64,000 bases of DNA from a virus (Duplodnaviria; Caudoviricetes), in IMG/VR virus record IMGVR_UViG_3300033997_000553, positions 2,008-66,007 of that record. The stretch is one strand, 5' to 3'. The notes below the pieces were generated by a model that searched no databases, was not told the origin of the DNA, and saw only the letters and a list, made by a program, of their open reading frames with translations. Position 1 is the first letter of the stretch; each line of letters opens with the position of its first letter. A program made the position numbers and the translations under genes. Positions 1,453-50,569 of this stretch are shown here, piece after piece.

Positions 1453-2372
1453 GCGCATTGTCCTTCTAGTGGTTCGCGTTTGAGGATTTCGCCATGGGCG
1501 GTAACGGCAGCCTTCAGGCGCTCATAACCGGGCATGTCTTTAGCCGCACGCAGCGCCGCTACGCCCTGCGTCCAGATAGCCGTCAGCTCTTGCTCAGTCA
1601 CAGCGCTCTTGGCTTTCGTGATCCAGGCGTCTGCCTGGGCGGGGTCAACTGCCGGCGGCTGGCCGCTCAGGTCGATGCCCTGGCCGCCGTCGGTGTTGAG
1701 GTAGTGGATGGCATGCTCCAGCCGTTCGGTTTTCGGCCAGTACTTGTAGGCCCGCTTCACGCAGGTCTTTTTGACCATTTCGCCTTCATCCGTAACCCAG
1801 GGGCAGGTCTTCGTCGGGTCGTTGATGTAGGCCTTCCAGGCGCTGGAGCGATCACGAATGGCAAACACCTCGTCCAGGCTCATGGCCTCGGTGAGGTAGT
1901 CGCCGTCTGCCGTCTTGACCACGACATACACCCCGACGATATCGCCGCGGTCCTTGGCGAATGGGGCGAAGGTGTGGGTCGGCGGGCGGTCAAAGCCGTT
2001 CAGGGCAAACTGGTCCGCCTCGTAGACCAGTTCGGCCTTGGCCCAGCGAATGGAGCCGGTGGCCATCGCCAGATCCATCAGCCCCATATAGCTAATGTCG
2101 AGGCAGATTTTCCCCTCGCGCGGCACCAGGTAGGCCTGTTTCCGCGCAGGGTTCAGGCTGATGCCGATTGATGCGACGTTGGTGATGGAGTCGACCACCG
2201 ACTGGCGATTGTTGGTCGCCACCTTGATGGTGTAGTCGTTGCGGCTGAGCACCTGGAGCGCAAATACAGCCTCGCGCTCGAAGTTGATGGAAGGATCGGA
2301 CAGAACGGATGCGAAGGCCTCACGGCAACCGTAAACGTCGCGCTCCACGATGGCGAACTTGTCGCTACTCAT
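1449..2372 (-). CDS. recT: RecT-family single-strand annealing protein
   Basis: GISLNPARKQAYLVPR, ISYMGL, PWVTDEGEMVKKT motifs. Confidence 0.9.
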   Translation of the reverse strand: MSSDKFAIVERDVYGCREAFASVLSDPSINFEREAVFALQVLSRNDYTIKVATNNRQSVVDSITNVASIGISLNPARKQAYLVPREGKICLDISYMGLMDLAMATGSIRWAKAELVYEADQFALNGFDRPPTHTFAPFAKDRGDIVGVYVVVKTADGDYLTEAMSLDEVFAIRDRSSAWKAYINDPTKTCPWVTDEGEMVKKTCVKRAYKYWPKTERLEHAIHYLNTDGGQGIDLSGQPPAVDPAQADAWITKAKSAVTEQELTAIWTQGVAALRAAKDMPGYERLKAAVTAHGEILKREPLEGQCA

Positions 2373-2382
2373 GGTGGATACC

Positions 2383-3441
2383 TCAGTAGGTGATGCTGAC
2401 GCTCGGCACTTTGCCGGCAGCGATCAGGCGAACCACGGCGCGGGCCTGGTCCTCGGTGATGCCGGTCGCCATGATCGCCACCTTGGCAGCGGTCAGGATG
2501 CGGACGCGGTGCTCGGTGTTGGCCTGGCGCTGGGCGGCCTCGTCACGCTCGCGCTGCTGCTGGGCTTCCTGGTCCAGGCGGGCCTGCTCAGTCGCGCGCT
2601 CGGCGCGCTCTTCTGCCTCGCGTAGCTGGCGGGCGCTTTCTTCCTGCTGGCGCAGGCGCTCGTCTTCAGCGCGCTGGGCGGCCTCTTCGGCCTCGCGCAC
2701 CTTGTTGGCCGCGGCAATGCGCTCGTTCTCGGCGCGCTGCTCAGCCTCCTTGCGGGCCTGCTGGGCGGCCTGCTCGGCAATCTCACGCTCGCGTTCGCGC
2801 TGCTCGGTTTCAGCCTGCTTGCGGCGCAGCTCGGTCAGTTCTGCCTGCTCGGCCTCGTACTTCTGGCGGCTGGCAAGGGCGGCGTTGAGCGAGTCGACGC
2901 TGGCCTGGTAGACGACGCCGGCCTCTTCGGCGCGCAGGCCGTAGTCCGTCTGCCGGTATTCGGCTTCCAGGGCGACGAGGTACTGCGCCAGGGTGGCGCT
3001 GTCGTCCTCCACCTTGGTGACGCAGGCCAGGTGCAGGCGCTTGATGGCGGCCTCGATGCTCGCCTCGCGCTCTTCCAGCTCGCGCTGAATGCGCTCCTGC
3101 TCGGCTTCCCAGTCATCCAGCGGCTTGCGCACCTGGTCGCGCAGGGCGTCCATCTGCTGGGCGAACTCACGCAGCTCGGCCTCGATCGCCTTGGGCAGCT
3201 CCTTGATGCGCTTCAGGTACTCGCGGCCTGGCTTCTCGACTGCCGTCTTGGAGCGGCTGACCTGCGCGGCCAGGGAGGCGACACGATCGCGGCCCTTGCG
3301 GGTGGTCAGGTCTGGAACTTCGCCACTGACCGCCTCGCGGGCGGCGTTTACGAAGGCTTCCAGTTTGCTGTGGCCGTAGATGGCAGGCGCGTTCTCGGCG
3401 CTGATTTCCTCGACGGCTGCGATTTCAGTTGTTTCGGACAT
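2383..3441 (-). CDS. Coiled-coil phage protein of the recombination module
   Basis: 352-aa E/Q/R/A-rich ORF with VPDLTTRKGRDRVASLA N-terminus, common upstream of recT/exo. Confidence 0.8.
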   Translation of the reverse strand: MSETTEIAAVEEISAENAPAIYGHSKLEAFVNAAREAVSGEVPDLTTRKGRDRVASLAAQVSRSKTAVEKPGREYLKRIKELPKAIEAELREFAQQMDALRDQVRKPLDDWEAEQERIQRELEEREASIEAAIKRLHLACVTKVEDDSATLAQYLVALEAEYRQTDYGLRAEEAGVVYQASVDSLNAALASRQKYEAEQAELTELRRKQAETEQREREREIAEQAAQQARKEAEQRAENERIAAANKVREAEEAAQRAEDERLRQQEESARQLREAEERAERATEQARLDQEAQQQRERDEAAQRQANTEHRVRILTAAKVAIMATGITEDQARAVVRLIAAGKVPSVSITY

Positions 3442-7322: not shown

Positions 7323-8024
7323 TCAGAACATCGACTTCGGAGGCCGAGCATCAATCACCCGGCCAATGATCCGCACGTTGTCGGTGATCTCCATCGTCTT
7401 GAAACTGGGATTGAGTGGGCGCAGGTACTCGACGCCAGCGTCCCTGACGTACTGCTTAAAGGTGGTTTCGCCGGTGTTTAGCAGCTTGGCGATGTAGAAC
7501 TTGCCGCTGATGAGGTCAAACCCCTCCGGCTGCACCAGGATGCGCATGCCTTCGGTGAAGGCGAAGCCGGTCGGCGGCATCATCGATTCGCCACCGACCT
7601 TCAGCCAGTAGCCGTGCGGCCCGGCGCGCTCGTCCGATTCGATCCATTCCTCGGCATCGCCCGGCAGGAAGGTGTCACACGCCTCGGCCCAGCTTCCTGC
7701 AGCCACCCAACTGATCAATGGGTACTCCTTAACTTCCCTGTACGGCTGGAGCGTAGGGGATACGTTGTTGCGCTCTTGAGGCCTGCCGAGCTCGCTCACG
7801 ACGGCCGAGGTATTCGGCAGAGGCTGCGGCATCATTATTTCAGCCTGATCGATCCGCAGCGCCTTTGCTATTAGCGCAAGGTCGGCCAGTGTCGGTTCGC
7901 GCGTGTCGCGCTCGTAGTTACCGATGCGTGATTGCGATTTCCAGCCGCAAGCTTTCGCTAAGTCGGCCTGTGAGATGCCGGCGATCTTGCGGAAATGAGC
8001 AATGCGTGATCCGAGAGTTTTCAT
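7323..8024 (-). CDS. cI: CI-like repressor (XRE HTH + S24 peptidase)
   Basis: ISQADLAKACG...RIGNYE HTH; VAAG cleavage site; GESM serine and TFK lysine. Confidence 0.95.
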   Translation of the reverse strand: MKTLGSRIAHFRKIAGISQADLAKACGWKSQSRIGNYERDTREPTLADLALIAKALRIDQAEIMMPQPLPNTSAVVSELGRPQERNNVSPTLQPYREVKEYPLISWVAAGSWAEACDTFLPGDAEEWIESDERAGPHGYWLKVGGESMMPPTGFAFTEGMRILVQPEGFDLISGKFYIAKLLNTGETTFKQYVRDAGVEYLRPLNPSFKTMEITDNVRIIGRVIDARPPKSMF

Positions 8025-8036
8025 ACCGCAAATTCT

Positions 8037-8103
8037 AATCACGGAATGAAATGGCGGAGTCTCACTAATTGTGTTTGCCATAATCACGCATCGTGTTTAT
8101 CCT
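8037..8103 (+). promoter_or_regulatory. PR-like promoter with OR operators
   Basis: TTGCCA-17-TATCCT; operator AATCACGCATCGTGTTT (8082-8098) identical to the OL copy; degenerate copies at 8060-8076 and 8037-8053. Confidence 0.88.
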
Positions 8104-8133
8104 CCAGAGTCAAAGACTCAAGGGAGCCTATGA

Positions 8134-8361
8134 ATGAACCGAATCCGTGAAGTACGAGAGGGCGCAGGAGTTACCCAGGCCGCCCTTTACCGCCAATTGA
8201 AGTGGGGGCAGTCGCGCCTTGCGAACTACGAGACAGGCGCTAGGTTGCCGGGCCTCAATGATGCCCGTGAAATCGTAGCAGCCTTGAACCTACTCGGCGC
8301 TAAGTGCGGCCTGGCCGATGTCTTCCCTGAGCCCGCCCAGCCCCCAAAGACGGCGGCATAG
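8134..8361 (+). CDS. cro: Cro-like HTH repressor
   Basis: 75-aa XRE HTH divergent from cI. Confidence 0.9.
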   Translation: MNRIREVREGAGVTQAALYRQLKWGQSRLANYETGARLPGLNDAREIVAALNLLGAKCGLADVFPEPAQPPKTAA

Positions 8362-37710: not shown

Positions 37711-39930
37711 ATGTACGGCATTCCCCGCGCCAAGCCAGCGCGCATCCCGCGCGCCGGCGGCAAGATCACCGGCCCCGGCACGGGCACTTCCGACTCGATC
37801 AAGGCCAAGGTGCCGGCCGGCAGCTACATCATGCCGGCCGACTCGACGGAACAGCTCGGCTTCGGCGCGCCCAGGGCTGGCGCCGGCAAGGTGCCGGTCA
37901 ACGTCAGCAGTGGCGAGACCGCCATCCTGCCTGAGCAGGTGCATGCCTTCGGTGTGCGTGCGCTGAATCAGCTGAAGAATGCCACGCACGCACCAACCGG
38001 CCAGCCCTCGGCGGCCGGCGGCGAGCTGTTCTTTGCTGATGGCGGCCTGGTCGAAGACCCTGAGAAGAAATGGACCCCCGAGCAGCGGGCGCAGAAGCAA
38101 GACCAGCTTGCCCGGCAGGCTCAGCAGTTGAAGCTGGCCTCTGGCTACGACGCCAGTCCCGACATTCGCAACGCCCAGGCCGCCGACGATGCGGCCATGC
38201 AGACTCAGGCAACCGCTGGCCTGCAGCCCACGGTTAAGCCAGGGTATTCGAGCTTTGCGCCGGCGCGTGACCTGCAGCGCGCCCAGGATGCGCGCATGCA
38301 GAGTAATGCCATTGCTGCGGATAAGATGGGGCAGACCGTTTCCCGTGCGGCAGATGGCGCGGTAAATGCCGCCATGACTGCCCAAACACCGCAGCCGGCC
38401 CGCCAGGCGCCGTCCGGTGCCGTGACCCGTGGCAGCAACGAGTTCGCCCCTGGCCTGAACATCATGCAGCCGGCGCGCGATGCGCAGAACACCCGCGAAA
38501 TCCGCAATGTCGAGCAGGCAGCGCAGATGGAGCAGACCGTCAGCAATGCCAGCCAGGGCGCAATCGATGACGCACTGGCCGGCAAGGCCCCTGCTGCCGG
38601 GCTGCCTGTGCGCAAGGAAGCGCCGGTGCCGGCGCAGAGCGTGGCTGATAGCTACGCTCGCGGCCTGCGCGGCGCTGGCGAGGTTGCGCTGGGTGTTGCT
38701 GGCTACCCTGGACTGGCCGTCTATGACGGCGTGCGCAATGTCGCCGGCAGCCTGGCCGGCGGCGATACCGGCCAGATCAAGCAGTACCGGGGCGAGGCGA
38801 GCAACCTGGTCAGCGGGGGCGTCGAGCAAATGTCGACCGCCTCTGCGGATCTGCGCGAGCGCTCGGCCGCCGCGACCCGCGATGCGCTCGGCATTCAGAA
38901 GGCGCCCGCAACTGCCGCGACAGCGCCGACAGGTGCCGCTGAACCGGTGGGCGCAGGCAGTCAGGCCAACGATTACGCCGGGCCTGAATCTGCACCTGCC
39001 GCCTCCTCTGTGCCCGCTACGGGCGGCGCAGGAGGCGCAGGCGACGCAGGAGGCGCGCCGGGCTGGACTAAAACCGGGATCGGTGCGGGCGCCCAGGGCG
39101 GCGAGATCGCCATGCGCCGCAACGAGCAGGGCCAGGTCGAGTTCACCAACGAGACAGCTTCGCCGGAAGCTGTGGCTGGCGCCCAGAGCATGCCGGCTGG
39201 CGGTTACGGCGTGCCGCGCCGCGGTGCTGGCGGTGAAGACCTGGCCGGTCGCGGCTCTTCCGCGAATGTCGGCAACGGCGTCGGCACCTTCAGCCAGATG
39301 GAGGCGGGCAGCAGCCAGGAAGCCCTGGCCCGCTTCGAGCGCGCCAACCAGATCCGTGACGAACAGCTGGCCGAGAGCGGCGGTTTCGGTGTCGCCGGGC
39401 TGCGCGACAGTTCGCGCATGCCGAGCACTGCCGAGCTGGTTAATAACAAGCTGGCGCGCCAGGACAAGCGCGATCAGGCCGAGACCGTGCGCACGAACCA
39501 GGATGCCCAGCTGAGCGCCAGTCGCGTGGCCACCGAGGAGCTGCAGCAGCAGAAGCTCCAGCAGGATCTGATCACCGGCCAGTACAGCCTTGAGGATCAG
39601 CAGCGCATGAGCGAGCTGCGTAGCCAGCTGTCTGATCCGAATTTGCTGCCCGAGCAGCGCGCCCAGCTGGAGGCTGCGTACTACGCGCTGAATACCTCGG
39701 CGAAGGATCGCTACATGGAAGTGCGCGGCGGCACCAATGCGGATGGCGCCAAGGACGCGTCGCGAGTGTTTGACCAGCGTACTGGGCGGTATGTCGATGA
39801 CGGCGCCGCGCCAGGGGCCGCCACAGCCTCCGGCGAAACCATCGCGCAACCCTCCAGCAAAGCCGAGTACGACGCCCTGCCGAAGGGCGCGCAGTACATG
39901 AAAGACGGCCAGATCCGCATCAAGAGCTGA
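37711..39930 (+). CDS. Putative internal/ejection protein
   Basis: A/G/Q-rich 739 aa; GPGTGTSDSI and FADGG motifs; EYDALPKGAQY tail. Confidence 0.75.
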   Translation: MYGIPRAKPARIPRAGGKITGPGTGTSDSIKAKVPAGSYIMPADSTEQLGFGAPRAGAGKVPVNVSSGETAILPEQVHAFGVRALNQLKNATHAPTGQPSAAGGELFFADGGLVEDPEKKWTPEQRAQKQDQLARQAQQLKLASGYDASPDIRNAQAADDAAMQTQATAGLQPTVKPGYSSFAPARDLQRAQDARMQSNAIAADKMGQTVSRAADGAVNAAMTAQTPQPARQAPSGAVTRGSNEFAPGLNIMQPARDAQNTREIRNVEQAAQMEQTVSNASQGAIDDALAGKAPAAGLPVRKEAPVPAQSVADSYARGLRGAGEVALGVAGYPGLAVYDGVRNVAGSLAGGDTGQIKQYRGEASNLVSGGVEQMSTASADLRERSAAATRDALGIQKAPATAATAPTGAAEPVGAGSQANDYAGPESAPAASSVPATGGAGGAGDAGGAPGWTKTGIGAGAQGGEIAMRRNEQGQVEFTNETASPEAVAGAQSMPAGGYGVPRRGAGGEDLAGRGSSANVGNGVGTFSQMEAGSSQEALARFERANQIRDEQLAESGGFGVAGLRDSSRMPSTAELVNNKLARQDKRDQAETVRTNQDAQLSASRVATEELQQQKLQQDLITGQYSLEDQQRMSELRSQLSDPNLLPEQRAQLEAAYYALNTSAKDRYMEVRGGTNADGAKDASRVFDQRTGRYVDDGAAPGAATASGETIAQPSSKAEYDALPKGAQYMKDGQIRIKS

Positions 39931-39947
39931 GACAGGACAACGACACA

Positions 39948-42900
39948 ATGACTGATACCTGGGGCGAGAACGACCTGCTGGCGACTGATCAACCGGCAAC
40001 CGACTTCGGCGCTGATGACGAGGTGGTGCAGGACGGCGCACTTAGCCGCGGCTGGAACAAAGCCAAGCAGAACATGGCGATCAGTACCGACCTGGCGCTG
40101 GGTGACACCGAAGGCGCGGCGCGCACGGTAGGCGAGGCCGCTCTCTACCGGCAGCAGAACCCGGGTATGCAGGAGGGTGCTGAGCTGATGCAGGCCTGGG
40201 ATGAAGGCGACGGCATTGTCGGCGGCGTCAAGGCGGTGGCCGGCGAGTTCAGCAAGGACTGGAACGAGGCGGACGGCTTCGCAGCCGGCGCCCGGTCGGT
40301 CGGCAAGAACCTGCAGGCCATGGGCGAGGGCGTGCTGGAGCAGATGGGCAACATGGTGGCGCCTGTTGCCGGCATGGTCACCGGCGGCGTGGTTGGCTCC
40401 AAGATCGGCGCGCCGGTCGGCGCAGCCATTGGCGCGCCGTTCGCTGGCGTCGGCGCAGCACCCGGCGCAGCCATTGGCGGCACGGTTGGCGGTGTCGCGG
40501 GGGCCTGGGCTGGCGCCTCGGCAGGTAACGCGGCCATTGAAGGCGGCGGCATGGCGCAGGAGGGATTGGCCCAGGCCGGTATCGACCCTACCGACCTTGA
40601 TGCGGTCAAGGCCTACCTGGACGAGAACCGCGGCGAGCTGCTGAAACAGGCCAGCATCAAGGGCGGCATCATCGGCGCGGTCGACACCGCGACCGTCGGC
40701 ATCGCAGGCCGCCTGCTGAACGGCCCTACGCGCGCAGCGACAGCGCGAGCCATGGCCGCTCTGGGCGTGGACGGGAGCGACAAGGCGGCAGTCAAGAGCG
40801 CCACCCAGTCGCAGGCCTTCAGGGATCTGCTGGCGCAGGACGCGGTCTTTCAGTCGTCGCGCCAGGGCGCCGAGAGGATCGCGCGCAACATGGCCGCAGC
40901 CGCCATCTACCCGGCCGGCGAGTTCGCTGGCGAGTACGTCGGCACCGGCGTCGCCACCGGCGAGTGGGACACCAAGAATGCGACCCTGGAAGCGCTCTCT
41001 TCGGTCGGTCAGTCCGCAGCGATGTATGCCGGGCAGAAGGCCTACCAGGCCGCGACCGGCGTCGGCAAGATCCAGCCCCTGGTGCAGCCCACGCCGTCGG
41101 CGGAAAACCCGAACCCGGCACCGGTTGAGCGGCCCGATCCGAGCGCCGGCCCGCTGTCTGCTGCCGCCAACCTGCTGCCCGCACCGAACGTAGACGGTGG
41201 TCCGAGCGGCAGCCAGAGCCCGGTGCAGGAGGCGGCGCGCGCGACCTTGATCAATGGCGCTCCGGAGCCGGCGCAGGCCGGCGACTACCAGCCGGCAGAC
41301 CTGCAGACGGCTGTTGCCCAGCAGATGTTCCGAACCGAGATCGACGAGAACAATCCTGGTGCGCTGCGCTTTTTCCACCGGGATGCAGACCTGCAGTCCT
41401 GGGTGGAGGTGCCTGAGCGGGAGGCGCTGGCTGCCGCCCAGGCTCATATTCAGGACGCCGAGCGGCAGGGCTTCGACCCGATGGATGGACGGGATCTTGG
41501 CCAACTGCTGCCAGAGGTAGACCAGGACCCCGGCCCTCAAGGCACGGGCATGGCGGCTGACGATTTGACGCCCTACGAGCGCAACCAGTTGCGTGCGCTC
41601 GGCGTCACGGACGAGCAGTTGGCCTCAATGACCACCAGGGAGGCCAGACAGCTTCCGCTGCCCACCGTTGACATCGATTCCGGCCCGCAAGTGGTCGAAG
41701 AGGCAGGCGAGTCGCTGCCGCTGCCAACCGTGGAGATGGACAGCGGCCCGCAGCAGGTCGAGCAGGTGCAGGCAGCGCCGATGGCTGACGACTCTGGCTA
41801 TGAGTACCGGGTGCAGAAGAACGGCCGCCCGTTCAAGGGCGAGAGCGATGTGCGTCTGCGCCAGGCCTTCAAGGAGGCTGTGGCTGCCGGCGAGCAGCCG
41901 GTGGTGGTGCAGCGTGAGGGGGGCTGGGCTGTGGCCGTGCCACGCGCGGCAGCAGGGCCCGTAGCCCCCATTGGCATCCCGGATCTGCGACAGAACAGTA
42001 GCGCTGTCGACGCCGCCGGCAATGCGGTGCCTGGCAAGATTGGCAATGTCCCGCCTGCTGATTACGTGCAGAGTGGTCGCGGCATGGACCAGCAGGCGCC
42101 AACCCGTACATTTCCCAACGTGCTGGCGGCCAAGAACGCCATTTCGAAGTCCCCCAATCCTGCCCAGCTCGAAGTGGTACCGGTTGGCCCGAAGCAATTC
42201 GAGATTCGCGCCAAGCAATCCGCAGCTCCGGGTGTAACCGATCAAGCTCCGGACGTAGCCGTAGATGCACCTGCATCGCAACCTGCTGCAGAAGCCGTTG
42301 CAGTCGCGGCGCCTGAAGCTGCGCCGGTGAAAAAGGCCGTCACGGTGAAGCCCTCGCCATCCGCTGCGGACAAGGCCGCACTTCCAGAAGTCCTCCGGCA
42401 TCCCAGGAAGCTCGCCATTGCCAAGATGATGAAGGCTTCTGGCATCAAGAAAGGCTCTCAAGGCTATGAGGCTGCGCTTGCTCGGCTTGAGCTGGAGTAC
42501 GAGCGCCAGGTAGATGACGCCCAAGCAGCGCTGCCGTTTGAGCAGTTCAACGCGCTCAACAAGGAATCGCCGGAGAGCGTGAATCGGCAGGCCTGGACAC
42601 AGCTGCGGACAGAGCGCGGTATTGAGGATGCAGCCAATCCGTTGGCTTCCGAAGAAACTTCGCCACAACAGAATATTGCTGTGGCAGCGGTTGCTAAGTC
42701 CCCCCAGCGACAGCCGCCCGCAAGCAAGGGCCGGACCGCCCCAACCATTTCCAGCACCACCCAACCGGCTGACGTTGCTGCTTCTGGGCAGGAGAAGGCT
42801 GAGTGGGTCGGTTTCACCCCCGATTCCGGCACCTTGGGTATCCCTCGGGCACAAATGCCGCAAATCAAGGCTGAGCACCGGGGGGCGATGGTCAACTTCC

Positions 42901-45900
42901 TCAACGCGCGTGATGTGGCGCATGCCGAGGAGACCATTGCAGCTAGCGAGCTGAAGCCAACCCAGGCCGAGTACTCGACCAAGAAAGTAGAGGCTGCCAA
43001 GGCATTCGATGGTGGCGAGCGCTCGATCCTGATTTCCAGTGATAGGCATGTGCTGGACGGTCACCACCAATGGCTGGCCAAGCGCGAGGCAGGTGAAGAC
43101 GTAAAAGTCATCCGCCTGGATGCCCCCATTCGCCAGCTGCTTGATACGGTTGCCGAGTTCCCCAGCGCCTCAGTCGATGCGGCCAGCGCTGGCCCTGCGA
43201 GCACTCCTCAGGCTGCAAGGGTAGAGGATGCTGGTGAGAAGCTGGGCGGTGCCCGAAAGGACGAGCTACGCAGCGTTCGCGAGCGCCTGGACAGCATGGA
43301 TGATGCTGCTATCGCCAACAGCACGCTGAGCCAGCTGTGGCCGAAGGACGAGATCACCAGGATCGAAGACCTGTTCCACGCGGCCTCGTACCAGACCGTG
43401 CGCGAGATCATTCCAGCCAAGCCTCGGGTGCCATATAAGGTGCGCGCTTGGGTCGAGAAGGTTAAAGGTGCGCGGGAAATCCTGAAGCACTTGGCTCAGC
43501 TCGGCGCCGACACGACTGTGGCCAAGATGCGCCAGTTCAGCCCCGGCTTGCGTCCGATTGCGGACAAAATCGAGCTGCTGATGGGCGTTGATCGTGCGCA
43601 GTGGGGACGCATTGGTCGCGTCAGCATGGCCAGCGGTCGCTACAGCGAAGGCGGCACGATGGTTCCCGGGTCGTGGGTTGAGGTCGAAGTCGACGGTCGG
43701 AAGAAGCACTTCTTTGGAAAGAACTCGGTCGCCGAGGCAATGGGCGATATCCGTGCGGTGATCAACCTGAACTCGGCGCCTGAGTCGCGCATGAAGTTCG
43801 CTATCTACACGGATCGACGCAGCGGCGAAGTGTTCATTGCCAAGGACGGGGATAAGGAACAACGCAGGCTCAAGACCTTTGGCAAGGTAGCCGAGGCGCG
43901 CAAGTTTGTGGCTGACAATCACGCCGACCTCGTTACCGCGTGGGACGCGGTGAAGAACCGCGACAATGTGACCAAGGCTGATATGCGGCGCGATACCAAC
44001 GAGGATCGCGCCGGCCGGGATTATCGCAATGGAGCCGATATCACCCCTGAGCAGTTCATTGAGGCCTTCGGCTTCCGTGGCGTTGAGTTCGGTAACTGGG
44101 TAGCGCAGGGCAGCGGCGGAGCTGATCGGCAGGGGATGTTGAACCAGGCCTACGATGCCTTCATGGATCTGGCTGATGTTGTTGGCGTGCCTCCGAAAGC
44201 ATTGAGCCTGGAAGGGCGCCTAGGAGTTGGCTTTGGATCGCGCGGTCGCGGGAGGGCCAGCGCCCACTTTGAGCCAGGTAATGTGGTCATCAACCTGACC
44301 AAGACCAAGGGGGCCGGCTCTCTGGCGCATGAGTGGTTCCACGCGCTGGACAATTACTTCGCTCGCCAGCGTGGGGGCGAGGTGCCGATGGAGCGCGGGT
44401 TTAACGCCCAGCAGGCCTATCGCAACAACAACTTCATCACCTACCGGCCTGAGCCGCTGTATATCCACAAGACCAAGCAGAGTAAGCCGGTGTCGCTGGA
44501 TAAGTTGCGGCGCTACCACGAACAGAACCCGACCGCCGAGTATTACAACCCAGCGAATTGGCAGGTGGACCCACGTCACCCTGCAGGGGTTCGTCCCGAA
44601 GTTGAGCGGGCATTCGCCGAGCTGGTCGAGGTGCTGGATCAGTCGCCTATGTCACGCCGCTCTGCAGCCCTGGACAAAAACCCTGATGCCTACTGGTCGC
44701 AGATCATCGAGCGCGGCGCGAGGGCGTTCGAAACCTACGTGATTGCCAAGCTCGCCGATCAGGGCTATCGCAATGACTACTTGGCCAATGTCCGCTCGCT
44801 GGAGGAATTTGCCCGTGCCGCTGATCGGTACCCTTACCTGACGCCGGACGAGCAGGGGCCGGTAAGCGAAGCATTCGACAAGCTGTTCTCGACTATCGAA
44901 GCTCGCCAGGAGCAAGACGGTCGGGTCGGGCTATATCGCCTGAATGCTGATACCCAAGCGGCCTACGAGCAGCGTATCGACGACCTGTTCGCTGGTGCCG
45001 AGCCGAACAACACCGCTGGCGTGCGCGTGCTCGACCGGAGCGACGTGCTGGATCTGCTGGGCTATGGCGATCGCGAGGTAGTCCTGGCTGAGAAGCATGC
45101 CGTCAGTGATGGCCGGTTCAATCACCCGCAGTTCACCGCGGCGGATTGGAAGAAGGTGCCAGAGTGGCTGGAGAACCCGGTAGCGGTGTTCGAGCGGGAT
45201 GACGGCAACCTGACCGTCGTTGCGCCTGAAACCAAGGGCGGGAACCCTATTCTGATTGCGATCAACCCCGGAGCAAGTCGGCCCGGGTATGCGGGCGGGA
45301 AGAAGTTGCACGTCTTACTGACGGCCTACGACAGGGATCGTGGTCGGTTCCCGGCTGAGCGCATGATCCGCGATGGCCAGTTGCGCTACATCGACACAAG
45401 AAAAAGCCCCGCATTCAACGATAGTTCAAGGCTCCGATTGCCAAGTAACGTCGTTGAGCTGCGAGGCCTAGGTAAAAAGGTATATACCGGTGCCGATCTT
45501 TTCAAGTACCGCTCAGCGAGCAGCGCCACAGACGGGCAGCGACTGAGGGTCAACCCCGGCAAGGCCAAGGGCATTCCGCTGTTCAGCGCTCGAGCGATTG
45601 CCGCCAAGATCGGCCAGGCCACCGGCCTGCGGGTCGAGCCGGTGGCTGATGAGGCCGGCTTGCCAGCCGCGGTGCGGGCGCAGATCCGGCGCGACGGTGT
45701 GAGCGGGCGGGTGGCGGGCGTCTACCATGACGGCACCTCCTACCTGATCGCCAGCAACCTGCGCGACAGCCAGCACGCCATCAGCGTGGTACTGCATGAA
45801 GCGGTGGGCCATGGCGGCGTCAAGGTGGTGCTCGGCGACAAGCTGGGCATTGCCATGCGCGGGATCTACCGCGGCATGCCGGCGGCAATGCGTACCGAAC

Positions 45901-48900
45901 TTGAGCGCCGTTACGCCGGCCAGCTGGCCGGACTGAAATCCGACAGCGAGCGAGAGGTGCTGATTGCCGAGGAATACGTCGCGCACCTGGCTGAACATGA
46001 CCCCAGCAACAGCGCGCTCGATCGCATCGTGGCGCTGGTCAAGCAGTTCATCCGCAAGCTGTTTGGCGAGCAGGCGGCCGGGAAATGGTCGCGTGCCGAC
46101 GTGGTGCAGCTGCTGGCCGAGGCCAAGCGGGCCGCTGGCAGCCAGGGGGTGAGCGACCGCGGCAGCCGTTACCGGGCCGCTGAAGCCGCCGACGCCCCGG
46201 CCGCACTGCCAGAAGTGGCGGAAGCCGACGAGGCTGAGTTTGTCGCCAGCTTGGCGGGCGACTCTGGCCACCGCGCCTTCGCCGGTGCCATCTACAAGGC
46301 TCGCGGCACCGAGTCGCCGTTCTTCCAGCGCTGGTTCGGCAAGAGCCGCATGGTCGACAAGCAGGGCCAGCCAATTGCCTTTGTGCACCGCAGCTATGGC
46401 GAGCGCGACAGCTTCAGCGATGCCGACCTGGGCAAGAACACCGGAACCCCGACCGCGGCCCTTGGCCACTACCTGGCACGCCGCGACGTGGGCAACGTGG
46501 AGCGCTACGGTCCGGTCACCGAGCAGTTCTATATCCGCATGGAGAAGCCGAAGGTCATCAGCCAGCAGCAGTTCGAGGCGATGGGCGACTGGTCGCTTGC
46601 GCAGGTTGAAGCGTATCGCAAGACCCTGATGGAGCGCGGTCATGACGGCCTGTACATCCAGGGGCTCGGCTGGGCGGTGGTATTCGAGGGCAAGAACATC
46701 AAGGCCAGGCGCAACTCTGGCACCTTCGATGAAACCGCGCGTACTCGCTACGCGGCAACAGAAAGCCTAATCGAAAAGCAGTTTGCCGATACCGAGAAGG
46801 CCATTGGTGGTCGAGCCACTTGGCAGCAGGCGAAGGATGCCGGCCGCACCAAGCTGGAGTATCGTCAGTGGGTGCAGGTGAGAACGCCTGCGTTTAAGGC
46901 ATGGTTTGGAGACTGGGAAAATGGCACTGAGCAAGGAGGAGCAGGCGTCGCTGGAAGCGCTCAAGAACGGGGCAGCCCTGGCGGAAGCACTGGATCTGCT
47001 GCCGCCACCACCACCGGAGTTTCTGGCAACGCTAAACCGCAACGCCGACCCGATAGCGGAGTACGGCGACTGGACGGACGAGGGCGAGTGGATTCCGCCG
47101 GAAGAGGCGTTGAAGCGTCTGGCAGAGAAGCAGCAGGCCAAGTAGAGCGCGACTGGCGCCTTGACCCCCAAACGGGAGAGCCTGCGGTATTTCACCACGG
47201 CACCCGCGACCACTTCACCGCGTTCGACCTGGATCACCCGAACCGCAAGGATAAGGGCTGGCTTGGGCGTGGCGTGTACCTGGCCAGCGACCGTCGCCTG
47301 GCAGATGCCTATGCCAAGCTGAAGCAGGGCTCCGGGCAGCCGCAGGTGATGGACTTGTTCGTCAATGTTCGCAACCCGGCTGTGGCCACGCTGGCGCACA
47401 AGCAAGTGCTCCGTCGCGCCTCGCAGGAGTACATCGATGCGGAAACGGCCGCTCTGATCGCTCGGGGCCACGACGGCGTGGTGATGGAGCTGCCAGACGG
47501 TACTCTGGAGCTGATGGCCTTCGATCCGGCCGACGTCAAGTCGGCGACCGATAACGCCGGGGACTTCGACCCGGCCAGCGCCGATATTCGCTACAGCCTG
47601 GCTCAGGATGCTGCCGATCTGTTCAACCGCTTCGGCCGGCGGCCGGCGGACGTGAACGACCCGTTTGCCGAGGAAAACCGTCGTCTGCGCGAGCAGGACA
47701 AAACCCTGTGGGGCAAGGCCAAGCAGCAATTCCGTCGCCAGTTCGCCCCGGGGGGCCTGCTGCCCGACTCGGTGTTTGCCGAGAAGATCGCCCGCGACAG
47801 CGAGTTTCAGGCCGTAGAGTTCGATGTGCGCCACCTGTCCGGCGGGCTGAACAAGGCCGTGAAGACTGACTACGGCGTCGACATCGACAACCTGACTGCT
47901 GAGCAGATGAAGCCGTTGGCCGAGGCGCTGACCGGCAAGGTAGACCCTGCCATCCCCGAAGCTACCCGCGTGGCTATCGTGGCCATGCGCCAATACATCG
48001 ACAGCCTTTCAGGCGAGTACCTGAGCATCCTGCAGAAGCAGGTCGAGGCGAACATGGAAGGCGCCGACCAGGCGTTGATCGACAAGATCACGGGCAACCT
48101 TGGCGCCTACGTCAACCGTTCGTACCAGGCGTTCGATGACCCGAAGTGGTTCAAGAGAGTGCCAACCGAAGTGGTCAATGCTGCCCGGACCTACCTGGCC
48201 AAGGGCTATATCGAGCAGGGCGAGACGCCGGCCGAAGCGGCGCGCCTGGCGGATGTGACCGTGAATGAAATGCTCAAGACCGGTACTGCTTATGATTCGA
48301 TGGGCGCATTCATTGCCGAGGGCAAGCTTGGCGCCAAAGACCTGACCGTGCTGATCAAGCGTAAGGAGATCGCGCCGGAGATCCGCGCGCTGCTGGGCGA
48401 GTACCTGGACCCGCGTCTGAACTTCGCTAAGTCGGCGACCAAGATGGGCCGTCTGGTGTGGAACCAGCGCTTCCTCGATCGCGTGCTGTCGTTCGGCATG
48501 GGCACCTTCCTGTTTGAAGGCAAGGACCGCCCGGCCGATGCCACGACGCAGATCGCCGGCGAGCAGTCGGAAACCTATGCGCCGTTGAATGGATTGTGGA
48601 CGTACCCGGAAGTCGCGCAAGCGTTTCAGGACGCGCTCGGCAAGGAGCAGATGAGCGACCTGTACCGCACAGTCGTTCGCCTGAACGGCATGGTGAAGTA
48701 CGGCAAGACCATCCTTTCCCCGACCACCGCCATGCGTAACTGGCAGTCGGCCATGTTCTTTTCCCTAGCCAATGGTCACTTCGACCTGACCCAGATGAAG
48801 AAGAGCTGGTCTGCTTTCCGCGAACAGGTAACCCAGAACGCCAGCGGCGACGACCTGGCGTACCTGCGTAAGCTGAAGCAGCTCGGCGTCGTTTACGACA

Positions 48901-50294
48901 CGCCGTATGCCGGCGAGATGATGGCGCTGCTGGCCGATGCCAGAATGGACGAGCTGCTGAGCAGCAAGAGCGGTACCGGCCTGAAGTGGCTGCGCAAGGC
49001 CAACCAGTTCGCCCAGGGCTTTTATTCGTTCGGCGACGACTTCTGGAAGATCATCGGCTTCGAGAACGAGAAGGCCAGCCTGATCAAGGCAGGCATTCCA
49101 GAGACCGAGGCGGAAACCATGGCCGCCGAGCGCATCCGCAACACCTATCCGACCTACTCGATGATCGGCAAGGCCGTGCAGTGGCTGCGGCGGTTCCCGC
49201 TGGTTGGCACCTTCGTCAGCTTCCCGTCGGAGATCATCCGCACAACCGTCAACATGATGAAGCTGACGGCGGATGATCTGAAGAGCGATAACCCTGGCAT
49301 CCGCGCCATCGGCCGCAAGCGCGCCGCCGGCATGGCCATGGTCTCGGCCGGCTTCTATGCGCTGTCAGCGCTGACTGCCGCTGCACTGGGCGTTGGCGAT
49401 GATGAGGAAGAGGCGCTGCGGGATCTGTCGGCGCCCTGGTCGAAGAACTCGACGTTCCTCTACACCGGCCGCGACGCCGACGGCAAGCTGCGCTACTTCG
49501 ACATGAGCTTCCTTGATCCGTACGGCTACTGGAAGCGCCCACTGACGGCGATGCTGCGCGATCAGCCCTGGGAGGACGCGGCCGTCAGCGGCCTGAACGA
49601 CATGCTGTCGCCGTTCTTCGGCGCCGATATCACCGCCGGGGCGATTTTCGAGGTGATGGCCAACAAGAAGCCCACCGGGGGCCAGGTGTACAACGAGCAC
49701 GCCGGCAGCGTTGACCAGCTGCAGGACATTGCCAACCACATGCGCAAGGCGCTGCAGCCAGGCTTCGTGAGCAATGGTGAGCGACTGTGGCTGGCCGGCA
49801 CCGAGGCCCGCCGCGAAGGCGGCGGCCAGCCCTACGACATGCGAGACGAGCTGGTCAGCCTGCTGGGCTGGCGTGCGGCTACGCTGGATACGCAGACCGG
49901 CTTGTACTACCGGTCGTTTGATTTCACCGACGCGCTGGCGGATGCCCGCAAGACGCTGACGCGCACGCTACGCAGCAGTAACGATGTTTCAGAGGGGGAT
50001 ATTCGGGAGTCGAAGCAGGCAGCGAATGCGCAGTATCAGCAGGCATTCACCGAGATGGGCAGGCTGGTCGGCGCTGCAGGGGCGGCTGGGATGAGCCGGC
50101 AGGAGATCATGCAGACGCTCAAGCTCAGCGGCGTGGCACAGCGCAACATCGTGGCGCTGCTGAATGGCAGGGTGCCGGCAATGGATATTGGCATGCAGGC
50201 GCAGGCCAAGGCCGTACAGCAGGCGAGGGTGATGCGCGACACTGAGCACGCCGCAGAGATTGCGCGGCGTTTCCGGCTGGCACGGGAGCAATAA
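39948..50294 (+). CDS. Giant polyvalent protein (ParB-like, LPD5/LPD1, PBECR/MuF-C-like nuclease, zincin peptidase, two ADP-ribosyltransferase-like domains)
   Basis: 3448 aa; VLDGHH, GEKLGGARKD, FGFRGVEFGNW...AHEWFHALD, LHEAVGH, WFGKS...FVHRS, WFGDW...FHHGT...GRGVYL. Confidence 0.9.
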   Translation: MTDTWGENDLLATDQPATDFGADDEVVQDGALSRGWNKAKQNMAISTDLALGDTEGAARTVGEAALYRQQNPGMQEGAELMQAWDEGDGIVGGVKAVAGEFSKDWNEADGFAAGARSVGKNLQAMGEGVLEQMGNMVAPVAGMVTGGVVGSKIGAPVGAAIGAPFAGVGAAPGAAIGGTVGGVAGAWAGASAGNAAIEGGGMAQEGLAQAGIDPTDLDAVKAYLDENRGELLKQASIKGGIIGAVDTATVGIAGRLLNGPTRAATARAMAALGVDGSDKAAVKSATQSQAFRDLLAQDAVFQSSRQGAERIARNMAAAAIYPAGEFAGEYVGTGVATGEWDTKNATLEALSSVGQSAAMYAGQKAYQAATGVGKIQPLVQPTPSAENPNPAPVERPDPSAGPLSAAANLLPAPNVDGGPSGSQSPVQEAARATLINGAPEPAQAGDYQPADLQTAVAQQMFRTEIDENNPGALRFFHRDADLQSWVEVPEREALAAAQAHIQDAERQGFDPMDGRDLGQLLPEVDQDPGPQGTGMAADDLTPYERNQLRALGVTDEQLASMTTREARQLPLPTVDIDSGPQVVEEAGESLPLPTVEMDSGPQQVEQVQAAPMADDSGYEYRVQKNGRPFKGESDVRLRQAFKEAVAAGEQPVVVQREGGWAVAVPRAAAGPVAPIGIPDLRQNSSAVDAAGNAVPGKIGNVPPADYVQSGRGMDQQAPTRTFPNVLAAKNAISKSPNPAQLEVVPVGPKQFEIRAKQSAAPGVTDQAPDVAVDAPASQPAAEAVAVAAPEAAPVKKAVTVKPSPSAADKAALPEVLRHPRKLAIAKMMKASGIKKGSQGYEAALARLELEYERQVDDAQAALPFEQFNALNKESPESVNRQAWTQLRTERGIEDAANPLASEETSPQQNIAVAAVAKSPQRQPPASKGRTAPTISSTTQPADVAASGQEKAEWVGFTPDSGTLGIPRAQMPQIKAEHRGAMVNFLNARDVAHAEETIAASELKPTQAEYSTKKVEAAKAFDGGERSILISSDRHVLDGHHQWLAKREAGEDVKVIRLDAPIRQLLDTVAEFPSASVDAASAGPASTPQAARVEDAGEKLGGARKDELRSVRERLDSMDDAAIANSTLSQLWPKDEITRIEDLFHAASYQTVREIIPAKPRVPYKVRAWVEKVKGAREILKHLAQLGADTTVAKMRQFSPGLRPIADKIELLMGVDRAQWGRIGRVSMASGRYSEGGTMVPGSWVEVEVDGRKKHFFGKNSVAEAMGDIRAVINLNSAPESRMKFAIYTDRRSGEVFIAKDGDKEQRRLKTFGKVAEARKFVADNHADLVTAWDAVKNRDNVTKADMRRDTNEDRAGRDYRNGADITPEQFIEAFGFRGVEFGNWVAQGSGGADRQGMLNQAYDAFMDLADVVGVPPKALSLEGRLGVGFGSRGRGRASAHFEPGNVVINLTKTKGAGSLAHEWFHALDNYFARQRGGEVPMERGFNAQQAYRNNNFITYRPEPLYIHKTKQSKPVSLDKLRRYHEQNPTAEYYNPANWQVDPRHPAGVRPEVERAFAELVEVLDQSPMSRRSAALDKNPDAYWSQIIERGARAFETYVIAKLADQGYRNDYLANVRSLEEFARAADRYPYLTPDEQGPVSEAFDKLFSTIEARQEQDGRVGLYRLNADTQAAYEQRIDDLFAGAEPNNTAGVRVLDRSDVLDLLGYGDREVVLAEKHAVSDGRFNHPQFTAADWKKVPEWLENPVAVFERDDGNLTVVAPETKGGNPILIAINPGASRPGYAGGKKLHVLLTAYDRDRGRFPAERMIRDGQLRYIDTRKSPAFNDSSRLRLPSNVVELRGLGKKVYTGADLFKYRSASSATDGQRLRVNPGKAKGIPLFSARAIAAKIGQATGLRVEPVADEAGLPAAVRAQIRRDGVSGRVAGVYHDGTSYLIASNLRDSQHAISVVLHEAVGHGGVKVVLGDKLGIAMRGIYRGMPAAMRTELERRYAGQLAGLKSDSEREVLIAEEYVAHLAEHDPSNSALDRIVALVKQFIRKLFGEQAAGKWSRADVVQLLAEAKRAAGSQGVSDRGSRYRAAEAADAPAALPEVAEADEAEFVASLAGDSGHRAFAGAIYKARGTESPFFQRWFGKSRMVDKQGQPIAFVHRSYGERDSFSDADLGKNTGTPTAALGHYLARRDVGNVERYGPVTEQFYIRMEKPKVISQQQFEAMGDWSLAQVEAYRKTLMERGHDGLYIQGLGWAVVFEGKNIKARRNSGTFDETARTRYAATESLIEKQFADTEKAIGGRATWQQAKDAGRTKLEYRQWVQVRTPAFKAWFGDWENGTEQGGAGVAGSAQERGSPGGSTGSAAATTTGVSGNAKPQRRPDSGVRRLDGRGRVDSAGRGVEASGREAAGQVERDWRLDPQTGEPAVFHHGTRDHFTAFDLDHPNRKDKGWLGRGVYLASDRRLADAYAKLKQGSGQPQVMDLFVNVRNPAVATLAHKQVLRRASQEYIDAETAALIARGHDGVVMELPDGTLELMAFDPADVKSATDNAGDFDPASADIRYSLAQDAADLFNRFGRRPADVNDPFAEENRRLREQDKTLWGKAKQQFRRQFAPGGLLPDSVFAEKIARDSEFQAVEFDVRHLSGGLNKAVKTDYGVDIDNLTAEQMKPLAEALTGKVDPAIPEATRVAIVAMRQYIDSLSGEYLSILQKQVEANMEGADQALIDKITGNLGAYVNRSYQAFDDPKWFKRVPTEVVNAARTYLAKGYIEQGETPAEAARLADVTVNEMLKTGTAYDSMGAFIAEGKLGAKDLTVLIKRKEIAPEIRALLGEYLDPRLNFAKSATKMGRLVWNQRFLDRVLSFGMGTFLFEGKDRPADATTQIAGEQSETYAPLNGLWTYPEVAQAFQDALGKEQMSDLYRTVVRLNGMVKYGKTILSPTTAMRNWQSAMFFSLANGHFDLTQMKKSWSAFREQVTQNASGDDLAYLRKLKQLGVVYDTPYAGEMMALLADARMDELLSSKSGTGLKWLRKANQFAQGFYSFGDDFWKIIGFENEKASLIKAGIPETEAETMAAERIRNTYPTYSMIGKAVQWLRRFPLVGTFVSFPSEIIRTTVNMMKLTADDLKSDNPGIRAIGRKRAAGMAMVSAGFYALSALTAAALGVGDDEEEALRDLSAPWSKNSTFLYTGRDADGKLRYFDMSFLDPYGYWKRPLTAMLRDQPWEDAAVSGLNDMLSPFFGADITAGAIFEVMANKKPTGGQVYNEHAGSVDQLQDIANHMRKALQPGFVSNGERLWLAGTEARREGGGQPYDMRDELVSLLGWRAATLDTQTGLYYRSFDFTDALADARKTLTRTLRSSNDVSEGDIRESKQAANAQYQQAFTEMGRLVGAAGAAGMSRQEIMQTLKLSGVAQRNIVALLNGRVPAMDIGMQAQAKAVQQARVMRDTEHAAEIARRFRLAREQ
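45398..45505 (-). ncRNA. Candidate antisense hairpin sRNA with its own promoter inside the polyvalent gene
   Basis: TTGAAA-17-TACCTT (45505-45477), then a ~70-nt hairpin with G-U pairs and a U5 tail. Confidence 0.6.
46921..47145 (+). CDS. Nested out-of-frame 74-aa acidic protein inside the second ART domain
   Basis: GGAGA RBS 8 nt before ATG; GC3-rich host-like codons; main frame is a low-complexity insert here. Confidence 0.7.
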   Translation: MALSKEEQASLEALKNGAALAEALDLLPPPPPEFLATLNRNADPIAEYGDWTDEGEWIPPEEALKRLAEKQQAK

Positions 50295-50299
50295 ACAAG

Positions 50300-50328
50300 T
50301 GGGCGCCGAGCTGGCGCCCATTTTTTTC
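50300..50328 (+). terminator. Rho-independent terminator
   Basis: TGGGCGCC-loop-GGCGCCCA then T7. Confidence 0.85.
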
Positions 50329-50569
50329 AGTAGCAGCTTTCTCCCATCCGGCTCGTTCGGCATTCGCCGCCGAACTCGCCGCCATAGTCTGGCCCGCGCT
50401 CTATCACGGCCAGGGTGAGCAGCAGGGCAAGTACGCCGGACACCGACAGGATTATCTTGTTTCGATGGGCATTGCGCGGCATCAGCCAGGCCATCAGCCC
50501 TCCGACCACCATCAGCACCCAGACGAAGTTTGCGGCCAGGAATAACAAGAAAAAAAATACCTTCAGCAT
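50327..50569 (-). CDS. Small two-TM membrane protein
   Basis: MLKVFFFLLFLAANF..., GGAGA RBS. Confidence 0.7.
   Translation of the reverse strand: MLKVFFFLLFLAANFVWVLMVVGGLMAWLMPRNAHRNKIILSVSGVLALLLTLAVIERGPDYGGEFGGECRTSRMGESCY

Follow-up and report, generated by a model that had tools for sequence, protein, structure and literature searches.

A small open reading frame (ORF) at positions 46921-47145 of a 64,000-nucleotide window, itself part of an IMG/VR provirus record (IMGVR_UViG_3300033997_000553, positions 2,008 to 66,007), is highly likely to be a real protein-coding gene, kept by selection and nested in the +1 frame of a giant polyvalent-protein gene. The nested ORF covers a low-complexity linker which precedes an ADP-ribosyltransferase (ART) domain of the giant protein, and this single stretch of DNA very probably encodes two proteins. 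Comparison with relatives shows that purifying selection acts on the nested frame only, with the giant frame merely kept open, and that the nested product is a member of a new, previously unnamed family of small acidic proteins. We infer that the nested ORF is translated. The features which matter most for the argument are these:

46921..47145, plus strand, +1 frame: nested gene of 74 codons plus TAG, encoding the acidic protein P0002 (isoelectric point, pI, 4.3); based on translation, homologues, selection and an AlphaFold2 model
46908..46912, plus strand: Shine-Dalgarno-like GGAGA, 8 nucleotides (nt) 5' of the nested ATG, made of the rare Gly codon GGA and GAC
46893..46919, plus strand: junction motif FKAWFGDWE of the giant frame, with W, F, G and W invariant in the alignment
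46920..47147, plus strand: giant-frame linker of 76 residues, of low complexity in G, A, S and R, open and otherwise barely constrained
39948..50294, plus strand: giant polyvalent-protein gene of 3448 amino acids, from the ORF list and translation; it closes the virion structural module

The nested ORF reads MALSKEEQ...EKQQAK*, with its ATG at 46921-46923 and its TAG at 47143-47145, and lies wholly inside the giant gene. An initial annotation had described FKAWFGDWE as parted from the ART core by an insert rich in G, A, S and R, and had placed a clean shifted-frame ORF there with GGAGA 8 nt upstream; both descriptions hold. Near residue 2316 the giant frame runs from FKAWFGDWE through NGTEQGGAGVAGSAQERGSPGG...AAGQVE to RDWRLDPQTGEPAVFHHGT and the ART core, so the insert is present and about 76 residues long. 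Its codons also look displaced, as had been claimed: G+C content (GC) at codon positions 1/2/3 of the giant frame is 0.77/0.73/0.43 in the linker and 0.68/0.47/0.77 in the whole gene. The nested frame of the same linker has 0.73/0.43/0.77, the normal profile of the gene.

The evidence that carries the finding comes from relatives, beginning with substitutions. The closest homologue with DNA is L015, a genome from the family of the Thiopseudomonas metagenome-assembled genome (MAG), which matches protein P0005 of Azomonas agilis. Across the linker, window and L015 are identical at 47/71 residues (66%) of the nested frame, with nonsynonymous and synonymous differences (pN and pS) of 0.19 and 0.68 and a corrected ratio of the two rates (omega) of 0.13. 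The giant frame over the same DNA is identical at 29/77 residues (38%), with an omega of 0.83. A comparison of substitution rates in both frames had been proposed at the outset as a check on the nested gene, and it comes out in its favor. In the flanking ART region the giant frame behaves as an ordinary coding sequence, with 200/299 residues identical and 89/59/187 differences by codon position, the usual third-position excess. A gap-free block of 45 codons was counted separately to avoid alignment bias; it shows 7/9/22 differences at nested positions 1/2/3 (p = 0.005), and identity of 30/45 in the nested frame vs 20/44 in the giant frame. The pattern extends beyond L015: nested position 3 holds most of the differences in 13/13 family pairs in DNA-level alignments (p < 0.05 in 5/13), and nested-frame pN/pS is 0.29-0.62 in all 13 pairs in protein-guided alignments.

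Relatives of the junction were collected from proteins and from viral contigs. A protein search with residues 2230-2560 scored 2544 candidates; 645 of them passed E <= 0.001, and the best 120 were listed. Among the matches listed, 18/120 giant proteins (query included) have a linker at precisely this junction, 60-104 residues long. Sequence hardly varies in the flanks, QWVQVRTPAFKxWFGDWEN and TGEPxVFYHGT, and the linker between them is hypervariable. In the 80 viral contigs kept for comparison out of 329 relatives, the junction is compact (WFGDWENDPxNASKVVDENGEP) in 75, carries a linker in 3 and is otherwise different in 2. A DNA similarity search of phage and plasmid collections gave short ART matches only, or none.

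Six intact linker-type genes formed the DNA comparison set: the window, L015, the linker-type loci L025, L026 and L027 (47-50% GC), and L105, the cultured Bacillus phage vB_BspP_Dartukuta (MW749009.1). Linker-type proteins P0009, P0010, P0012, P0014-P0017, P0021, P0022 and P0025 lie outside this set. An ATG-started +1 ORF of 60-75 codons spans the linker in 6/6 of these genes, and every time the nested peptide is in the +1 frame and not in that of the ART. Frames +0 and +1 are free of stops in all six, and no other frame is; frame +2 contains 2-11 stops. Stops interrupting the nested frame in close homologues had been named as evidence that would refute the gene, and there are none. In Dartukuta, a 60-codon member of the nested family sits in the same linker (about 1560-1745 of the locus), where the sole annotation in the GenBank record is a giant 4203-codon coding sequence called 'putative methyltransferase'. 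Among intact genes, every instance found of the nested gene lies at the N-terminal border of a single ART clade (DLxHPNRKDxGWLGRG), which carries it in at least six different architectures with differing other domains.

The nested protein also exists away from the giant gene. A word-index search of 5.8 billion clusters found one 74-residue protein 80% identical to P0002, and 7 proteins of 66-85 residues came up at E <= 0.001 when 1.84 billion representatives were searched exhaustively without a profile. In one bacterial family, 6/401 sampled genomes match a profile of the small proteins; the matches lie at 7 places, 0/7 with internal stops. A class-level sample of 400 genomes (one of them unscored) gave no new family copy, and peptide-pattern scans of the viral contigs with the nested protein or its alignment gave no relative. 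Among the genomic copies, the giant gene is intact only around the one in L015. In L009, L010 and L017 just 180-460 nt of the giant gene are left, with the ART cut off after the YHGT region or frameshifted, and the small ORFs are intact. The Thiopseudomonas MAG contig L009 (3953-4398) holds two of them in tandem with a 4-nt overlap, one of the long type (81 residues) and one of the short type (68 residues); what remains of the destroyed ART gene next to them is about 180 nt. These represent the two subtypes of the family, the long with DPIAEYGDWTD and the short with LDENGDW. The copies in L016, L018 and L019 are free-standing, and homology to the giant gene is undetectable around them. A search for ART-PolyVal matched in 0/5 genomes with remnants or lone copies, and the same search was positive in 2/2 controls.

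Two lone copies lie at the edge of a common integrase/Toprim/DUF3987 island (L020, 7905-8099; L021, about 8016-8210, minus strand), exactly between the conserved island and its variable cargo. The cargo next to them is an insertion sequence (IS) element and SNF2 in one island, and TIR and SIR2-STALD in the other. The small ORFs of the two islands are 65-69% identical vs 90-94% for the adjacent DNA. A third lone copy adjoins an MmeI-like restriction-modification gene. A stand-alone 149-codon ORF was also seen in L011 (3749-4198) and L012 (3508-3957); it ends in ...APDLSEYGDWTDAVAVIDPEF and shares the EYGDWTD motif of the long subtype. It was not accepted as a family member, the similarity being too weak (40% over 51 residues, with an E of 1e-5 relative to candidates only).

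The product looks like a folded protein. AlphaFold2, given an 18-sequence alignment, predicts P0002 with a mean predicted local distance difference test score (pLDDT) of 86.6 and no residue below 50. The model has five helices, at residues 5-15, 20-24, 32-35, 45-48 and 60-73, and with the low pI it bears out the acidic helical character ascribed to the product from its letters. Acidity is shared across the family, with a pI of 4.1-5.0 in 12/13 members. Neither sequence nor model leads to a known family: P0002 has no match in Pfam, NCBIfam, PADLOC or PHROGs, and the 18 family members searched against Pfam gave solely single-member, chance-level matches (E >= 0.016). With the model as query, Foldseek had no hit at E <= 0.001 in PDB or BFVD, a wide VIA-align search reached a best Z of 2.2, and ESM Atlas scores stayed at chance level (at most 0.80). 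The same region read in the giant frame was modelled from 7 sequences with the ART truncated; its linker has a pLDDT of 26-39 and its ART part 35-56 (mean 38.1), and since the whole model is poor, the linker values are weakly informative as a disorder control.

Could the linker simply be a disordered hydrophilic tether, its open +1 frame a by-product of composition and shared ancestry, with no second gene at all? Several observations weigh in that direction. Longer open +1 runs exist elsewhere in the giant gene, of 158, 157 and 151 codons at 62-64% GC. When the giant-frame residues are held and their synonymous codons drawn at random, the +1 frame stays open across the linker with a probability of 0.45 in the window and 0.19-0.52 per locus. 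A +1 stop requires T at position 2 of a giant-frame codon, so a linker poor in hydrophobic residues readily leaves +1 open, and the openness is partly a by-product of this. The window by itself does not show a nested ORF beyond chance. For all six linker-type genes jointly the probability is about 0.003; a figure of about 1e-11, taken from stop frequencies in the flanks, was discarded as inflated in favor of this one, which is conditioned on the giant-frame residues. Furthermore, shared ancestry makes the pairs compared in the substitution tests non-independent, though the direction never reverses, and the nested proteins of L026 and L027 align weakly with the rest of the family, at 15-21% identity.

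The nested ORF gains its significance from the comparative evidence of its relatives, and here the account without a second gene fares badly. The nested reading is better kept than the giant one, both over the whole linker and in the gap-free block, and nested third positions peak in differences in every pair. Loss or destruction of the giant frame leaves the small ORF intact, and its ATG and GGAG are retained. The codon-position GC profile fits the nested frame, and the fold is predicted with confidence. The reading without a second gene is therefore already disfavoured, and we regard it as very unlikely.

The start signals seem to be written into the giant protein's own conserved residues. 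The codons of FKAWFGDWE double as the putative ribosome-binding site of the nested gene: GGAG arises from a Gly GGA followed by an Asp or Glu GAx codon of the giant frame, and the nested ATG from a conserved Asn, His or Tyr codon ending in AT plus the G of the following codon. GGAG is present at the junction in 5/6 linker-type loci vs 6/59 distinct compact-type junctions (Fisher p = 3e-4). A scan of window positions 46300-47500 gave no sigma-70-like promoter, and because no promoter-like site is nearby, internal initiation on the late mRNA is likely. An Rfam scan of 39900-50400, a range that takes in the antisense RNA suggested earlier at 45.4 kb, found no family.

A different account keeps the open frame and drops the independent start. 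The nested frame would be reached by programmed +1 frameshifting, giving a truncated giant protein with an acidic tail, or it would be what a compensated frameshift or a mobile insertion left behind. The nested frame is indeed open for 13 codons 5' of the ATG (back to a stop at 46879-46881), and in the remnant L017 FKAWFG is in frame with the small ORF. Against frameshifting, each lone copy has an ATG of its own to start from and lacks an upstream partner, 6/6 intact genes retain the ATG and 5/6 the GGAG, and the peptide is in the +1 frame of all six and never in the ART frame; no conserved slippery motif was identified, and the data can be explained without one. The 6-bp sequence GACTGG is repeated directly at 46911-46916 and 47151-47156, bracketing 240 nt, which would suit an insertion. 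The repeat was rejected as a target-site duplication because it encodes the Asp-Trp pair of two conserved motifs, FGDW and (R/E/A)W(R/K)LD (here RDWRLD), and both are kept across linkers of very different length. Nor was a second copy of the nested DNA or peptide found in the provirus by DNA and profile searches. Frameshifting or a relic of either kind is thus highly improbable, and a gene with its own start is the reading carried forward.

An antisense ORF of 408 codons on the minus strand (46767-47993) overlaps the nested gene, and in the linker its third positions coincide with those of the nested frame. It was rejected as a gene: across the linker, every antisense frame has stops in four or five of the six linker-type genes and none is open in all of them, so the ORF is best taken as an artefact of GC-rich DNA.

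The giant gene itself encodes a polyvalent protein, as Iyer et al. 2017 (PMC5512222) use the term. Pfam finds ART-PolyVal (4.8e-26, 92.6 bits), LPD5, MuF_C and LPD1 in it, and PHROGs matches 5' of the gene include terminase, portal, major head, head closure and virion structural proteins. In PMC5512222, polyvalent proteins are postulated to be packaged and injected, and the ART-PolyVal active site is given as H-Y-D, with His on strand 1, Tyr on strand 2 and Asp on strand 5. Two ART copies lie near the nested gene:

47148..47627, plus strand: second ART-PolyVal domain (RDWRLDPQTGEPAVFHHGT...), PF18760 at residues 2409-2540; the genome search places it at window 47172-47567 with 80.4 bits
46356..46727, plus strand: first, divergent ART-like copy (FFQRWFGKSRMVDKQGQPIAFVHRS...), PF18760 25.4 bits, below the cut-off; G000 48363-48734

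The second copy passes the PF18760 gathering score (92.6 vs a cut-off of 31.2 bits), covering profile positions 3-140 of 140. Of the H-Y-D residues, a candidate His is in HHGT and an invariant Tyr in GVYLASD. The nested gene always lies 5' of this second type of module. The first copy was said to have no insert, and FFQRWFGKSRMVDKQGQPIAFVHRS is indeed continuous in translation, with no linker and no nested ORF.

Two further observations concern linkers and junctions of this kind. At window positions 42048-42500 the giant-frame GC at third codon positions falls to 0.55-0.60, with position 1 highest, in an Ala/Pro-rich linker; no long plus-strand alternative ORF is listed there. In L004 (about 2250-3020), P0023, P0046, P0050, P0052, P0055 and P0059, FKxWFG(D/N)W is followed in frame by about 200-255 residues before the next HG[ST]-type regular-expression match, which was confirmed as an ART start (GEPLVLYHGT) only in L004. 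Several of these stretches contain ...RAQQRLDAM.P..VRVP..WRG..., and they may be a separate domain behind the same junction motif.

What might the nested protein do? We propose the following sequence of events. Ribosomes would start internally on the giant late mRNA at the SD-like (Shine-Dalgarno-like) GGAG and the ATG, both built from the conserved W-F-G-D-W-E-N-G codons, and would make a folded acidic protein of 60-85 residues from the unnamed family. Ribosomes translating the giant gene would read through this DNA as well, which to them is a flexible tether ahead of ART-PolyVal, free of stops and under no other constraint. Inside the producing cell the small protein would then restrain or chaperone the adjacent ART domain, up to the packaging and injection of the giant protein, and lone copies in bacterial islands would serve as orphan immunity against incoming ART effectors. 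A role as inhibitor or chaperone of the adjacent ART domain is judged the most likely function, and it is put forward tentatively, on modelling and on the pattern of lone copies, which resembles that of orphan immunity genes.

The initial annotation had proposed an immunity or inhibitor protein for the ART, had recommended predicting the complex of the two, and had held that the antidote could not be separated from its toxin. The last claim is contradicted by the lone intact copies: intact genes stand alone or beside a destroyed ART in 5 genomes, all without ART-PolyVal. The first remains plausible. Co-folding the ART core (chain 1) with P0002 gave a median score of 0.44 (runs of 0.44, 0.23 and 0.63) vs 0.00 for the best of three controls, with runs agreeing in at least 4% of contacts and a partner pLDDT of at least 64. 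The pair thus scored above all three controls, and calibration tempers what this says. The mark was reached by 58/80 solved complexes and 2/110 mismatched pairs, and at scores of 0.60 or less by only 7 of the 80 solved complexes, as well as by both passing mismatches. The prediction therefore lends weak support to an interaction; passes in the range of 0.44 are mostly wrong where a good prior is missing.

That caution is one of several points which weigh against an ART inhibitor. The related viral loci with a compact junction, 75/80, have no nested gene. ARTs of the HPNRKD type occur without a linker in P0048, P0051, P0056 and P0058, and the first ART copy of the same giant protein lacks a nested gene too. 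That gene and ART travel together says little, because physical overlap alone suffices for it. There is no similarity to a known antitoxin or immunity family in Pfam, NCBIfam, PADLOC or PHROGs, or to such a fold.

Alternatively, the nested gene may be real and its product independent of the ART: an anti-defence or host-takeover protein, or an assembly or packaging helper of the giant protein, which sits in the linker only since a disordered tether tolerates a second frame. We hold this to be possible, if doubtful. Many phage anti-defence proteins are acidic, as are nearly all members of this family. The protein persists under constraint in the five genomes without ART-PolyVal, most ART-PolyVal domains manage without it, and the lone copies lie on mobile islands with an integrase and a DUF3987 primase-like gene, which could need anti-defence genes. 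Speaking for an ART partner are the restriction of the gene, when intact, to the N-terminal border of one ART clade across at least six architectures, and the complex prediction above all controls; nor does any PADLOC, PHROGs or Pfam match back another role. The remaining probability falls to other roles or to no function.

A bolder extension of the ART-partner reading is that the nested protein is a portable immunity factor against injected phage ARTs, hidden in the effector gene, with one mRNA making both, and that bacteria, islands and satellites keep captured lone copies beside their defence genes. This we consider unlikely. If it were true, lone copies would neutralise the polyvalent proteins that incoming phages bring, and the target of such a defence would be an injected protein effector, not phage DNA.

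Giant polyvalent proteins are annotated as single genes, and here at least one 'featureless linker' is very probably the second reading of a conserved gene. This is a blind spot of annotation, as the nested gene was missed even in the cultured phage Dartukuta. It would also be a clean example of dual coding, in which the small frame is selected and the large frame simply kept open. The finding raises the question of how an injected ART is controlled before injection, and of whether bacteria reuse the phage antidote; if they do, the lone copies that neighbour TIR/SIR2, SNF2 and restriction genes would count as defence genes of a new type.

Parts of this arrangement have precedents. In the lambda-type Rz/Rz1 spanins, Rz1 is embedded in the +1 frame of Rz and the two products bind each other. 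As there, a complete small phage gene with its own start would lie wholly in a larger gene, in the +1 register and on the same late mRNA. Unlike Rz/Rz1, the host gene here is a 3448-codon multi-enzyme effector, and the overlapped part is an unconstrained linker and not a functional domain; the product looks cytoplasmic and acidic and is not a lipoprotein, and there is no relation in sequence or fold. Binding between the two products is here a weak prediction only. A second precedent is comS, a small regulatory ORF which lies out of frame in srfAB, a non-ribosomal peptide synthetase (NRPS) gene of Bacillus subtilis, overlapping a catalytic domain. Both are very small ORFs in another frame of a giant multi-domain gene, overlooked by annotation. 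Unlike comS, the nested gene belongs to a phage, lies in a linker, has free-standing homologues and forms a family across distant phages.

If the favoured function is right, a third comparison is with toxin-immunity pairs and orphan immunity genes. These are known from colicins, contact-dependent inhibition (CDI) and the type VI secretion system (T6SS), and ART pairs include DarT-DarG, ParT-ParS and Tre1-Tri1. The nested protein would then, like the immunity partners, be a small, fast-evolving acidic partner of an ART effector which neutralises it in the producer, and its lone copies, like orphan immunity genes, would be kept in toxin-less genomes. It differs from all of these systems in that there is no homology, the gene lies inside the effector gene and not beside it, and both the toxicity of the ART and its neutralisation are putative; unlike in toxin-immunity pairs, most ART-PolyVal domains have no such partner.

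In its ART-PolyVal, LPD1, LPD5 and MuF_C domains and its place at the end of the virion module, the giant protein itself is a typical example of the polyvalent proteins of Iyer et al. 2017 (PMC5512222). The main text of that paper contains 0 occurrences of 'overlap', 'linker', 'low-complexity' and 'frameshift', and it does not describe a second gene in the linkers. A gene within a polyvalent-protein linker did not come up in the literature searches either; the supplements of PMC5512222, which possibly bear on the frequency of the linker type, lay outside their scope. By analogy, the nested arrangement would work as in Rz/Rz1 and as comS does in srfAB, and its place in the linker of a polyvalent protein appears to be new.

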